Shown: positions 2,264 to 51,350 of the stretch, piece by piece | How the letters are laid out: each line of letters opens with the position of its first letter | Numbering within the stretch: the stretch's first letter is position 1 | From: Nitrospinota bacterium | Lineage (GTDB): Bacteria; UBA8248 | Assembly: GCA_046581755.1 (NCBI GenBank) | Contig: JAYGFR010000031.1 | Location: 11,039 to 75,038 of the forward strand | Direction of reading: 5' to 3' | Length of the DNA: 64,000 nt | The notes under the pieces: generated by a model | Told to the model about the DNA's origin: nothing | The model's input: only the letters and a program-made list of their open reading frames with translations | The model's database searches: none | Program-made: the position numbers and the translations under genes

Positions 2264-3523
2264 CTATCCGCTTCCGACCGATCGGCCTCCTTGAGAGGGG
2301 CCGACCCCCAGCTTTTTCAGGCCATCCTCAAGGGCGTCCAGCGCCCGGTCGATCTGCCCTTCGGTGTGGGTAGCCATGAGGGTCGCCCGCAGGCGGCTCG
2401 TCCCCTCGGGGACCGTGGGCGGCCGGATGGCCAGCATCAAAAACCCGGCCGTGAGCATGTGGTCGGCCAGGGCGAGGGCACTCCTCGCGTCGCCGACGAC
2501 GATCGGAAAAATCGGCACTTCCGCCCCACTGACGAGAGCAGGCATCTCGAAGCCGATTCGCTCCAGGCCGGCGCGGAATCTCCGGCAAAGGGCGGCCAGG
2601 CATTTCCGCCGCTTTTCCCCCTCTTCACCCGAGGCCAGTTCGAGGGCGGCGCCGGCGGAGACCACCAAGGCGGGCGGAAGGGCCGTGGAGTAGATGAACG
2701 ATCTGGCGTGGTTCACCAGATAATTTATTACATCGGTGTCCGAGCAGGCGAAGGCGCCGTAGGAAGCCAGGGATTTCCCGAGCGTCCCCATGGAGACGCC
2801 GACGCGATCCTGGACACCGAAATGCGCCGCCGCGCCCCTGCCCGAGGGCCCCAGTATGCCGGTTGCATGGGCCTCGTCCACGAGGAGGAGCGCATCGTGC
2901 CGATCTGCAAGGGAGGCCATTTCGTCCAGCGGAGCCAGATCGCCATCCATGCTGAATACGCCATCCACCGCGATGAGCCGCTGGCGGGCGCCCCTGGCGC
3001 GCCGGAGCCCATCCTCGAGCGCGTTCAAATCACCGTGGGCAAAGACGTACACCTTGGCCCGGCTCAGGCGGCAGCCGTCCACGATGCTGGCATGGTTGAG
3101 GGCGTCGCTGAATACGGCGTCCCCCTCCCCGGCCAGGGAGGAGATGAGGCCCGTGTTCGCCAGAAACCCGGAACCGAAAAGAATCGAGGCGTCTTTTTTC
3201 TTGAAGCGGGCAAGCGCCTTGGAGAGTTTTTCGTGAGGCTCCATGTAGCCCGAAATCAGAGGGCTCGCGCCGGCGCCGGAGCCCCACCGGTGCGCGGCCT
3301 CTGCCGCGCAGGCGGCCACCAGGGGATGATCGGCCAGGCCCAGGTAGTTGTTCCCGGCGAGATGGACGGCCTCGAATCCCTCGACCCGGACAACAGGGGC
3401 CTGCACCCCGGAGATCACCCGGAGCCTGCGGCGCAGACTCCGGCTGGAAAGGGAGCGCAAATCGGCCCGAATCGAATCGCGCCAACTCGAAGCCGCTGTC
3501 TGGATTGAGTCGCTCTCGGCCAT
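2264..3523 (-). CDS. bioF: 8-amino-7-oxononanoate synthase
   Basis: NNYLGL, DALNHASIVDG, DGVFSMDGD, DEAHATG, GTLGKS (PLP Lys), IRPPTVP. Confidence 0.92.
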   Translation of the reverse strand: MAESDSIQTAASSWRDSIRADLRSLSSRSLRRRLRVISGVQAPVVRVEGFEAVHLAGNNYLGLADHPLVAACAAEAAHRWGSGAGASPLISGYMEPHEKLSKALARFKKKDASILFGSGFLANTGLISSLAGEGDAVFSDALNHASIVDGCRLSRAKVYVFAHGDLNALEDGLRRARGARQRLIAVDGVFSMDGDLAPLDEMASLADRHDALLLVDEAHATGILGPSGRGAAAHFGVQDRVGVSMGTLGKSLASYGAFACSDTDVINYLVNHARSFIYSTALPPALVVSAGAALELASGEEGEKRRKCLAALCRRFRAGLERIGFEMPALVSGAEVPIFPIVVGDARSALALADHMLTAGFLMLAIRPPTVPEGTSRLRATLMATHTEGQIDRALDALEDGLKKLGVGPSQGGRSVGSG

Positions 3524-5381: not shown

Positions 5382-5654
5382 ATGAACGATCAAACCGACT
5401 TCCGGAAATTCTACCGCGACGCCCACGCCACCGCGCTTCTGACCGACCGCGAGAAAAAACTCATCGGCATCGCGGTCGCCATCGTCCGAAACTGCCAACC
5501 CTGAGTGGACCACCGCCTGGCGGCCGCCGGGAAAGCCGATATCCCAGAAGAGGTGCTGGACGCCACGTTCGATCTCACCACCGCGGTGATGGCCGGAATC
5601 GGACAGAGCATGAACCGGCGCTACAAGGATTCCCTGAAACCGAAAGAGGGGTAG
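5382..5654 (+). CDS. Putative CMD/AhpD-like selenoprotein, 90 aa, CQPU motif (TGA 5502-5504 read as Sec41)
   Basis: AGGAG RBS at 5371; LTDREKKLIGIAVAIVRNCQP-U-VDHRLAAAGKADIPEE matches the CMD pattern EKELIALAVA..C..C...H...A...G...EE; frame continues to TAG 5652-5654. Absent from the ORF track. Confidence 0.8.
5516..5531 (+). promoter_or_regulatory. Putative bacterial SECIS hairpin
   Basis: CCUGGC-GGCC-GCCGGG, 6-bp stem, loop GG starting +18 after the TGA. Confidence 0.6.
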
Positions 5655-10247: not shown

Positions 10248-10265
10248 TTTATGGGGATACTTGCC

Positions 10266-10508
10266 GTGGCCACCCAGATTGGAAAGTGGGGAAACAGCTT
10301 GGCCGTCAGGATTCCATCCGCCCTGGCGGAGCAATTCGGCTTGAAGGAAGGCTCTCCGGTGGAGATCATTACCGACGACCGGGGGCTCCTGGTCCGGAAG
10401 CCCGGCTACCGGCTGGAGGATCTCCTCGCGGGCATCACCCCCGAAAACCTGCCCCAAGAGCCTTCTCCCGGCCCGGCCGTGGGAGGTACGGACGGGGGAG
10501 GCGGATGA
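10266..10508 (+). CDS. mazE: AbrB/MazE-family antitoxin
   Basis: KWGNSLAVRIP, YRLEDLLAGITPEN; start may be the ATG at 10251. Confidence 0.85.
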   Translation: MATQIGKWGNSLAVRIPSALAEQFGLKEGSPVEIITDDRGLLVRKPGYRLEDLLAGITPENLPQEPSPGPAVGGTDGGGG

Positions 10509-10831
10509 GATCCGGTCTCGTCCCGGATCGCGGCGACATCCTCTTCCTGGATGGGGGCGCCGGACAGCGCGGCCGGGCCCCGGCTCTCATCGTCTCGCCC
10601 CGGGCCTACAACCGCGCCACCGGCCTTGCGCTCGCCTGTCCCATTATTCAAACCCCCGGGGGCTATCCGTTCGAGGTGCTCCTCCCCGGCAACCTGGGCA
10701 TCGCCGGAGCGGTCCTCGCCGACCGGCCCCAAAGCCTCGACTGGCGCTCCCGCCGCCCCGAATTCGCCGCCCACGCCCCCAAGGCCGTCCTCGAGGAAAT
10801 CGCCGCGAAGATAGCCATCTTGCTTGAGTGA
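10505..10831 (+). CDS. mazF: PemK/MazF-family toxin (catalytic residues appear degenerate)
   Basis: ATGA overlap with mazE; VPDRGDI, SPRAYN..TGLALACP, GYPFEV, SLDWRSR. Confidence 0.8.
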   Translation: MRSGLVPDRGDILFLDGGAGQRGRAPALIVSPRAYNRATGLALACPIIQTPGGYPFEVLLPGNLGIAGAVLADRPQSLDWRSRRPEFAAHAPKAVLEEIAAKIAILLE

Positions 10832-10941: not shown

Positions 10942-11484
10942 CTAGATACTAATCACCTTCCCGTTGAGCTTGATCTCGCTTTTGAGCGGGACGGCGGCCT
11001 GGACCATGGCTTCGGCGAAACACCCCTGCTTGGCGTTTTTGATGAGGGCGAGGACGCGCTCCTCGGGGGCGTCGGATTCGACGGTGAAGTACGTCCGGGT
11101 TTCGAGGCATTCGGCTTTCACGGTGCCCCTCAGGACGGAGCCGGAGAGAAGGTAGTCCATCTCGACGCGGACCTTGCTGCTCTTGTATTCGATTTTCATC
11201 ATGCTCGCGTACCGCGAGAGTTGGGTGAGCAGTCAGAAGCCGACTCCCATGCAGATGTAGGTGAGGGGCTGGGGGTGCTCGTCCTTTCCGCCCAGATCGG
11301 CGGGCTCGTCGCACATGACCTCGAAGTGGCGGTGTCGGCCGACCTTGAGCTGGGAGCCCGGGGGCGCCTCGGTGTCGGCGAACTGCTTGACCAGAAGGCC
11401 CTGCCGGGGGAGCTCGGGTTTGTCGATCACCCGCTCGCCGGGGGCGGTGCTCATGTCGCGGTGGAGGAGGGGCTTATCGTTCAT
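10942..11484 (-). CDS. Putative OsmC-like selenoprotein 1, 180 aa (TGA 11233-11235 read as Sec84)
   Basis: Two same-frame ORF-track fragments join as CDEP..LGG....P.PLTYICMGVGF-U-LLTQLSRYA; second catalytic Cys in AKQGCFAE; GAGG RBS. Confidence 0.85.
11204..11218 (-). promoter_or_regulatory. Putative bacterial SECIS hairpin
   Basis: CUCGC-GGUAC-GCGAG, loop GG at +20 after the TGA. Confidence 0.7.
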
Positions 11485-49881: not shown

Positions 49882-50775
49882 CTATCCGGCCTGCCCCGAG
49901 GGATGCTCGCCGAGGGCGTCGTAAACGATCCCGACGCCGTTTTTCTGGAGCAAATAAGCCCTGTCGCCCAGGACGCGAGGATGCTCAAGGCCGGGTCGAT
50001 CGATGTAATTCACCCGCTCCTGGACCTCCTCGCGACCGAGCCCGAGATCCTTGAGCTTCTTCACCTCCCCAATGACGTCGAACATCCTTTGCCGCTGGCG
50101 GGGAATTTCATCTTTCCGGCAAGGGCCGCCGTGTCCCGGCACGTACCAGTCCACGTCGAGGGATTCCAGCAAGGCGAGCGATTCGAACCACTCCCAGACC
50201 GCAGCCGAATGGAAGAAGGGATAATTGCCGGGGGTGATGTTGTCCGCCGTGAAGACAACGCGGGCCTCCACGGCGTGAACGACCGTCTGGCCCCGCGTGT
50301 GGCCGGGCGAGAATATGAGATGAAAGGTTTGGCCGCCGAGCCGAAGCGTCATCCGGCTGCGAAAAGTGATGTCCGGCCAGCGGATTTCGTACCCATCGAG
50401 GAGAGGCCCGCACTCGGGATCGTAAAACAGCATGCGCTCCTTGGCCACCTCGACGGAGGGAAGCGAGGTCAGGAAGTCGGAATAGGTCACCTCGCTCGAA
50501 ATGATCGTCCCTCCCCCCAGATACCAGTTCGATGCGATGTGATCTTGATGATGTTCGGTGTTGATGTGGTAGCGGAGGGGCCCTTTCGAAGCAATGAAAT
50601 CACGCCATTCGATCGCGTCGCTGGGCTTCATGGGGCCGTCGATGGCGACGACGCCCTCGGAGGTGATCACCATCCCCACTGTGGGGTAACGGTTCATGTA
50701 AAAAACCTGGTCGGTCAATGAGTCCATCGCTGCCTCACTGGGGGGCGGGAGAGCCGGATTTACAGGCGTGCCCAT
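49882..50775 (-). CDS. MBL-fold hydrolase (cyclase-like)
   Basis: INTEHHQDH, PGHT, VFTADN, VPGHG. Confidence 0.8.
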   Translation of the reverse strand: MGTPVNPALPPPSEAAMDSLTDQVFYMNRYPTVGMVITSEGVVAIDGPMKPSDAIEWRDFIASKGPLRYHINTEHHQDHIASNWYLGGGTIISSEVTYSDFLTSLPSVEVAKERMLFYDPECGPLLDGYEIRWPDITFRSRMTLRLGGQTFHLIFSPGHTRGQTVVHAVEARVVFTADNITPGNYPFFHSAAVWEWFESLALLESLDVDWYVPGHGGPCRKDEIPRQRQRMFDVIGEVKKLKDLGLGREEVQERVNYIDRPGLEHPRVLGDRAYLLQKNGVGIVYDALGEHPSGQAG

Positions 50776-50795: not shown

Positions 50796-51350
50796 TTATC
50801 CTGAAATCCCTTCGAGCTCCAAGGGCTCGCCGTTCAGTTCGATTTCACTTTTGAGCGGGACGGATGACTGGATCATCCGCTCGGCGTAGCAACCCTGCTT
50901 GGCGTTCCGGATAAGCAGAGCGATCTTCTCGGGCGGGGCACCGCTTTCCACCCGGAAAATCGTTCGCGTCTCTGTGCACCCGGACTCGACCGTCCCCTTC
51001 AATACCGAACCACGCAAAAAATAGTCCATCTCCACCCGACAACTCGCCTTGGTGATCTCGATTTTCATCATGTGCGCGTACCGCGCCAGCTGGGTGAGCA
51101 GTCAGAAACCCACCCCCATGCAGATATAGGTGAGAGGCTGGGGATAGCAATCCTGCCCCCCGATTCGGGGCGGCTCATCGCAAAACACCTCGAACTTCTC
51201 CTTCCGCCCCACCTTGATCTGGCCGTCGCCGCTCCACTCGGTCTCCGCCCATTGGTAGGAAACCGTCCCTTGGGGCGGAAGCTCGGGCTTGTCGATGAGC
51301 CGCTCCCCGAGAACGGCACTGAGCTCTGTCGTCACTATCGGTTTTTCCAT
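50796..51350 (-). CDS. Putative OsmC-like selenoprotein 2, 184 aa (TGA 51102-51104 read as Sec83)
   Basis: Same-frame fragments join as PQPLTYICMGVGF-U-LLTQLARYA; AKQGCYAE; clear paralogue of 10942-11484 with the TGA at the same codon. Confidence 0.87.
51071..51088 (-). promoter_or_regulatory. Putative bacterial SECIS hairpin
   Basis: UGGCGC-GGUAC-GCGC(A)CA, loop GG at +20; the U-A pair of paralogue 1 is replaced by G-C. Confidence 0.7.

Follow-up and report, generated by a model that had tools for sequence, protein, structure and literature searches.

An OsmC-related gene with an internal TGA and a conserved downstream hairpin in a Nitrospinota genome, very likely encoding a selenoprotein

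In the window analyzed here, the whole stretch of 64,000 nucleotides from a Nitrospinota bacterium, two related OsmC-type genes each contain an internal TGA codon with a short predicted hairpin behind it. The locus raises the questions of whether this TGA is a stop or a selenocysteine codon, whether the hairpin is kept by selection on RNA structure or follows from the peptide that it encodes, and what kind of enzyme such a gene would specify. We read the second of these genes, copy 2 below, as a member of the NCBI family NF041052 whose UGA is very likely decoded as selenocysteine via the hairpin and whose product is likely a selenol/thiol redox enzyme using Sec83 and Cys154, with a probability of roughly 0.85. 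The combination of an internal UGA and a downstream hairpin whose base pairs are kept in many relatives makes a selenocysteine-containing redox enzyme very likely.

Two paralogous genes with an internal TGA

Copy 2 occupies positions 50796..51350 of the minus strand and encodes a protein of 184 amino acids (P0002), running from ATG to TAA with one in-frame TGA, in the coordinates and frame given by the first-pass annotation. The TGA is codon 83 (51102..51104, minus strand) and likely specifies selenocysteine; it aligns with the first conserved, peroxidatic-type cysteine of the family and opens the UxxT motif U-L-L-T (U83-L-L-T86). The second conserved cysteine, predicted to be the resolving one, is Cys154 (50889..50891, minus strand) and is kept in 141 of 141 aligned homologues. 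Copy 1 (10942..11484, minus strand, 180 amino acids) has its TGA at codon 84 (11233..11235, minus strand). The two TGAs lie 39.9 kb apart and share one alignment column, and 109 of 179 aligned residues are identical, which bears out the earlier description of a diverged paralogue some 40 kb away with the TGA at the same codon.

Both proteins score above the NCBIfam NF041052 cut-off of 95, P0002 with 168.3 bits (E 9.4e-50), and P0002 also matches the Pfam OsmC family PF02566 (E 3e-12). Cysteine stands at the TGA position in 16 of 16 full-length database homologues (alignment A1). The AlphaFold model of copy 2 (mean pLDDT 79.8) was matched by Foldseek to 1lql, 3cje, 1qwi and 1n2f with probability 1.00, and the nearest solved chains by sequence are 3cje (E 2.7e-17) and 2opl. 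An OsmC/Ohr fold is predicted for copy 2 from this model.

A gene for a metallo-beta-lactamase-fold hydrolase (49882..50775, minus strand) lies 20 bases behind copy 2 on the same strand, and the two are possibly co-transcribed. Such a gene is the same-strand downstream neighbour of 4 of the 143 distinct homologue genes. A scan for promoters and terminators around copy 2 found nothing bounding the gene. Directly behind copy 1, on the opposite strand, is a MazE/MazF(PemK)-type toxin-antitoxin pair (window 10251-10831, plus strand).

The TGA might be a true stop, marking a pseudogene or a split gene, or a tryptophan codon under another code, or an assembly error. Protein databases do hold the two halves separately: 20 of the best 150 representatives are at most 120 amino acids long, and most of these match one side of the TGA, ending just before it or starting just after it. 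One database protein (P0015) has tryptophan at the TGA position, and Met-Met at +11/+12 could restart translation. Against these points, 139 of 144 distinct genes have the TGA in one common column, where neither TAA nor TAG ever occurs, and both halves are conserved in a single frame. The genome of the window has selA, selB, selD (with its own TGA and hairpin) and tRNA-Sec(UCA), and copy 2 uses TGG for tryptophan. Sequencing or assembly error, which the first-pass annotation had argued against, is excluded because independent contigs from two public DNA runs span the TGA and hairpin of copy 2 unchanged (5 differences each, all elsewhere; 4 of 24 listed public runs were examined), and because all 150 matches listed among 207 in related genomes have a TGA inside, 4 of them with a further stop. 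Two RNA runs gave short contigs on copy 2, of 180 nt across the TGA and hairpin and of 151 nt at the 5' end, which we left out as expression evidence because contigs cannot show transcription or its level. On this evidence, a stop, a tryptophan codon or an error has a negligible probability. Selenocysteine remains the preferred reading of the TGA and, by analogy with the established bacterial pathway, SelB-GTP-Sec-tRNA would very probably bind the G-G-U loop of the hairpin and deliver selenocysteine to the UGA.

The hairpin behind the TGA

We number the hairpin from the first base after the TGA (nt 1). In copy 2 the predicted upper hairpin of a bacterial SECIS element spans nt 16-28 (51074..51086, minus strand) with pairs 16-28, 17-27, 18-26 and 19-25, and G20 and C24 of its GGUAC loop can also pair. 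Sequence comparison places the predicted SECIS hairpin of copy 1 at nt 15-29 (11204..11218, minus strand), with pairs C15-G29 and U16-A28. The codons that the first-pass annotation had quoted as following the TGA are correct in their letters but begin 13 nt after it, at codon +5, and not directly behind it. Counting from the first base after the TGA, its exchange of U16-A28 in copy 1 for G16-C28 in copy 2, accompanied by S-to-A and S-to-H replacements, is correct. The stem that it described as preserved is so at this compensated pair; the adjoining outer pair, which it does not mention, is C15-G29 in copy 1 but mismatched (G15.A29) in copy 2, and the two copies therefore differ by one compensated and one lost pair.

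The common 9-base core CGGTACGCG occurs exactly 2 times in the window against 0.38 expected, and 2 occurrences were reached in 4 of 100 shuffles. Compared with shuffled sequences, folding energies were not significant for 45 nt from the UGA (z = +0.18 for copy 2 and -0.63 for copy 1) or for 27 nt (z = -0.55 and -1.83), and a search of Rfam near copy 2 gave no family at threshold and two chance miRNA matches (E 2 and 4.7). Judged from sequence, it is the comparison across homologues, and not its own stability, that sets the hairpin beyond chance.

The bacterial SECIS model, as laid out in the available text of PMC13188914, has a loop of 3-9 nt with a G within its initial two positions, a stem of 4-16 bp, a distance of 16-37 nt from the UGA and an energy of at most -7.5 kcal/mol. 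The two copies fall within these bounds with a GGUAC loop, 19 nt from UGA to loop, a stem of 5-6 bp and energies of -8.1 (copy 2) and -7.8 (copy 1) kcal/mol, the energies being from our own folding windows and not from bSECISearch.

The homologue set was assembled from 30 loci of the related-genome search, 80 further regions and loci from other searches, and covers part of the matches; two loci of an unpublished genome (G269) were excluded from all sequence counts. It comprises 162 matches representing 144 distinct genes, of which 139 have TGA and 5 have a cysteine codon at the Cys column, with no other codon found. Among the 138 TGA genes with enough sequence, pairing is possible at 20-24 in 133, at 19-25 and at 18-26 in 136 each, at 17-27 in 135, at 16-28 in 126 and at 15-29 in 105; it ends there, positions 14-30 and 13-31 showing no pairing (16 and 8 genes). 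All five core pairs are present in 113 of the 129 distinct 45-nt TGA sequences, four in 14 and one in 2. RNAalifold recovered the identical six pairs unaided. In a set of 57 distinct hairpins, pairing holds in 91.8% of cells. The covariation score of this set, 0.47, compares with 0.15 after shuffling and at most 0.15 with partners slid.

The first-pass annotation had rested its case on a single covarying pair. The change at 16-28 is real (G-C in 96, A-U in 17, U-A in 9 and G-U in 4 of the 138 genes), but covariation is wider and this pair is not the best evidence. Pair 17-27 varies too, being C-G in 98, G-C in 19 and A-U in 18 genes, and the silent third position of an alanine codon, nt 27, tracks nt 17: C17 goes with GCG in 97 of 100 cases, G17 with GCC in 19 of 19 and A17 with GCT in 16 of 16. 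GCT is used for only 25 of 329 alanine codons elsewhere in the homologue genes. As far as sequence comparison can tell, pair 17-27 is the best witness of selection on RNA structure. Because the hairpin is itself part of the reading frame, codons +9 and +10 change to match what has changed in codon +6.

Could the stem instead be a by-product of a conserved protein sequence written in GC-rich codons, arising without selection on RNA structure? The peptide Ala-Arg-Tyr-Ala spells GCG CGG TAC GCG, and in synonymous shuffles the peptide alone gives 3.3 of the 5 pairs on average, 3.5% of the shuffles of the copy-2 peptide giving the full hairpin. The unremarkable folding energy is also in line with such an origin. 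The arginine codon +7 is CGG in 130 of 132 genes, against 103 of 271 elsewhere in the homologue genes; CGG is not specific to TGA genes, being present in 4 of the 5 close Cys forms. What speaks against a by-product is the count of complete hairpins, where a synonymous codon redraw is expected to give all five core pairs in 9.3 of the 129 sequences against the 113 observed, together with the silent alanine wobble base that follows its partner even into the rare GCT (16/16), the matched changes in separate clades and the loss of the stem in Cys forms. We consider the by-product explanation largely refuted and very improbable. Selection on RNA structure, as the first-pass annotation had proposed, is the interpretation that these counts support, and the family offers a clean comparative case of a bacterial SECIS element in a coding region: a silent wobble base follows its partner, and separate clades show matched changes.

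On neither of the two points where that proposal could have failed was it refuted: TGA homologues keep the stem, in the proportion given above, while none of 34 Cys homologues has all five pairs. Of these 34, 29 are distant; the five close ones (at least 38% identity; two of them near-identical) keep 2, 2, 2, 2 and 4 pairs, the 4 being those of the Cys form L187. Close Cys controls are scarce: metagenomes gave 6 loci, plasmids gave only distant matches (below 32% identity), and 401 genomes of another phylum gave the three Cys forms over the cut-off that are described below.

The pair counts above are over kin, and changes were also placed on a quick protein tree of 141 rows from which the selenocysteine and hairpin codons had been removed. 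There all 5 changes at nt 17 are accompanied by a matching one at nt 27, and nt 27 alone changes twice more. Three of the 5 changes at nt 16 are matched (to U-A in the copy-1 clade, separately to U-A in a clade of the Burkholderiales order, and to A-U in one clade) and 2 are unmatched, leaving 16-28 unpaired in two lineages (U.C in 7 tree rows, A.C in 1). A formal independent-pairs test had no power: on well-supported branches no more than 1 and 2 pairs could be used (p = 1), those for nt 16 being one matched and one unmatched.

Several individual genes deserve mention. In the AT-rich genus g4, two loci (L080:2301-2339, minus strand, and L081) have the hairpin rewritten in AT-rich codons, with the register shifted by one base and a G-A-U loop; the two of the 129 TGA sequences with one core pair are the ones that fold in this one-base-shifted register. 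Tandem pairs (L036, L053, L057, L086) and two copies 6 kb apart (L102) are diverged TGA paralogues with different compensated hairpins. In the genome of the window (G000), the paralogue on contig C381 (615-1165, minus strand; locus L131) is frameshifted a few codons ahead of the TGA and retains the TGA and the hairpin, with G-U at 18-26; it is either a recent pseudogene or an assembly error.

Distribution and a second selenocysteine lineage

The genome of the window has six TGA family members over the NF041052 cut-off, including the frameshift-split one. The OsmC-related family was found in 43 of the 61 genomes searched and in all 36 of the same taxonomic family, each of which has several TGA copies (3-12 matches each). 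Matches do not equal copy numbers; the 8 matches in G000, for example, comprise the six TGA genes together with a fragment and a distant Cys gene. SelA was detected in 41 of the 43 carrier genomes; completeness is 67% and 79% in the two that lack it.

Beyond the lineage, matches occur in 9 of 301 genomes from the order around a Burkholderiales record, a tally that includes G269, and all 16 of these matches have TGA. Four of five carriers tested outside the lineage have selB. Among 401 genomes of the phylum of the Burkholderiales record, 4 pass the family cut-off, one as a TGA carrier and three as Cys forms. Genes with 86% identity occur in Nitrospinota MAGs; according to the part of the BSepDB paper available to us (PMC13326102), one such MAG falls under UBA8248, and three UBA8248 genomes are among the ten richest in selenoproteins, with 54, 50 and 48 genes; the organism of the window probably belongs to UBA8248 or close to it. 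Since many of the genes appear in protein databases as two separate halves, it is easy to overlook this redox family, which has multiple copies in a widespread marine lineage. A 180-residue Nitrospinaceae entry (P0006) reads like one copy's C-terminal half joined to the N-terminal half of a following copy and ends at GVGF, an arrangement that would be compatible with two fused OsmC-Se domains interrupted at two TGAs. Many distant relatives (e.g. P0039, P0055 and P0058) are about 400 amino acids long with two OsmC-like domains.

A further OsmC-fold gene in the genome of the window is YhfA-like (protein P0024; contig C31, 3221-3652, minus strand, which is 2722-3153, minus strand, of locus L197) and scores 37.7 bits against NF041052, below the cut-off. 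It sits between genes for an LLM-class oxidoreductase and a sulfurtransferase. In a search of 46 genomes, 11 had a match, and the P0024 orthologues (L199-L208 included) have TGA at the first cysteine (U-M-M-G) in 3 of these and cysteine in 8. The three TGA genes group in a single clade (SH-aLRT 95). They have in common a hairpin of 7 bp at nt 13-33 whose loop starts A-G-U, with one U-A/C-G change; a partial stem persists in one Cys form (L201). This lineage is possibly an independent, uncatalogued Cys-to-Sec recruitment outside the curated model.

Possible chemistry and relation to known systems

Ohr and OsmC, as described in the available portions of PMC5384416, PMC8945050 and PMC5962072, use a peroxidatic and a resolving cysteine, are activated by an arginine and a glutamate and are recycled by lipoylated proteins; the same sources describe a third, Ohr-like/YhfA group as lacking the Arg and Glu and poorly characterised. 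They also report that loss of the Glu or Arg of XfOhr raises the thiol pKa from 5.9 to 7.2 or 8.1. The catalytic residues of XfOhr are Glu51 and Cys61 (PMC5962072, available text), and one Ohr-like enzyme had no peroxidase activity (PMC5384416, available text). In E. coli OsmC we read Glu49 and Cys59. Across 143 homologues of copy 2, position 73, where Ohr and OsmC have the catalytic Glu, holds Leu 103 times and Met 40 times; it aligns with a Met of YhfA. Residues 40-72 contain no invariant Arg, and R17 and R90 are conserved. When profiles were compared, E. coli OsmC aligned only in the region of the second cysteine (probability 3.9%), and YhfA gave a weak full-length alignment (40.8%). The missing catalytic Glu and the better alignment with YhfA than with OsmC therefore place copy 2 in the third, Ohr-like/YhfA-type group.

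Selenocysteine has a low pKa and is ionised at neutral pH without activating help. For this reason, the OsmC-related subfamily may keep selenocysteine, its low pKa standing in for the missing activation. Against this idea, the natural Cys forms also lack the Glu, with Leu in 103 of 130 longer representatives. Reasoning from the chemistry of Ohr and OsmC, we lean slightly toward a cycle in which, in a homodimer, the Sec83 selenolate would reduce an oxidant, most likely an organic hydroperoxide, and would form a selenenyl-sulfide with Cys154, a lipoylated protein or an AhpD-type reductase then serving for recycling. The genome of the window has lipA, a GcvH homologue and an AhpD-like TGA gene; the window itself includes an AhpD-like gene with an in-frame TGA (C-Q-P-U) and hairpin (5382-5654, plus strand), a candidate reductant partner. 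No lipoyl-carrier (GcvH) or AhpD gene was found beside the TGA copies. The one place where a GcvH lipoyl-carrier gene was seen as a neighbour is L134 (2421-2789, plus strand), where it precedes a Cys-type homologue by about 200 bases.

A smaller but appreciable share of our expectation goes to an enzyme in which selenocysteine is inserted but which is not a peroxidase, where Sec83 and Cys154 would act on S- or N-oxides, on persulfide or disulfide sulfur or on a catabolic intermediate, and where paralogues would differ in substrate. The Glu/Arg activation of Ohr and OsmC appears to be missing, the nearest relatives belong to the uncharacterised YhfA-type group, and each genome has several ancient paralogue clades. 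The neighbours are varied and include an amidase, a molybdoenzyme resembling S/N-oxide reductases, a TcuA-type flavoprotein and an LLM monooxygenase. However, no neighbour recurs across clades, the largest cluster covering 14 of 143 genes and mostly one genus, so that the neighbourhood points to no particular pathway; thiol peroxidases are also matched in fold and at both redox positions. An AIR-synthase-like neighbour of 10 genes was considered as selD and rejected, being below SelD cut-offs and without a match to the SelD of the genome. Unlikely in our view, as a whole, is a more far-reaching picture in which the lineage has several selenium-dependent OsmC-fold enzymes per genome with chemistry other than that of Ohr and OsmC, selenocysteine replacing Arg and Glu, and differing oxidised substrates, in which a tightly kept SECIS element lets RNA pairing dictate which residues of the active-site helix can change (A/G/K/E/S at +6, H/S/T at +10), and in which the YhfA-like gene is a second selenocysteine recruitment with its own hairpin. 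Returning to the selenol/thiol redox enzyme that we prefer, the Ohr-like group is without a settled function, and a selenocysteine form with natural Cys counterparts offers a handle on whether selenium replaces the catalytic Glu and Arg.

Novelty, which the first-pass annotation had implied, does not extend to the kind of system. Copy 2 adds no new kind, its family being on record since 2005 and covered by a curated NCBI model. In the available text of PMC1088965 (Zhang, Fomenko and Gladyshev 2005), OsmC-like selenoproteins are listed under COG1765 with a UxxT motif, three sequences and a predicted hairpin. They are listed again in the available parts of the reviews PMC9312934 and PMC13188914, and PMC1976440, in its available part, lists the OsmC-like family with no selenocysteine member in its data set. 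In the literature searched, with most subscription papers outside its scope, we found no account of multi-copy expansion of OsmC-like selenoproteins or of covariation in their SECIS elements, and no paper on NF041052 or on selenoproteins of Tectomicrobia. "OsmC" is absent from the main text of the BSepDB paper, and none of three terms looked for occurs in the 3,999,962 characters searched of its supplement.

The closest known system is NF041052.1 itself (OsmC_like_Se, "OsmC-related (seleno)protein"), which is of the same kind and is passed by all six TGA paralogues of the genome; compared with its 144-position model, the proteins studied here carry a conserved N-terminal extension of about 30-40 amino acids. 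With the OsmC-like selenoproteins of 2005 they share, as far as the available text of PMC1088965 goes, the OsmC-like domain, UxxT and a predicted SECIS element downstream, the likeness of the hairpins being one of description and not of figure. The SECIS consensus in the available text of PMC13188914 (Fig. 2 legend) has in common with our hairpins an in-frame hairpin whose loop is N1-G-U-N-N2 with N1-N2 pairing. In the SECIS element of E. coli fdhF, G-G-U stands at nt 19-21, whereas here it is at nt 20-22, one base further from the UGA, and fdhF folds a long lower stem that the hairpins of the two copies lack. At the protein level, Ohr/OsmC (X. fastidiosa Ohr, E. coli OsmC) and the Ohr-like/YhfA group (E. 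coli YhfA; 3cje, 2opl) have the same predicted fold and two redox positions. Compared with Ohr/OsmC, copy 2 has selenocysteine in place of the first cysteine and no Glu ten residues before it, and its two redox positions are 71 residues apart, against about 60 in the available text of PMC5384416.
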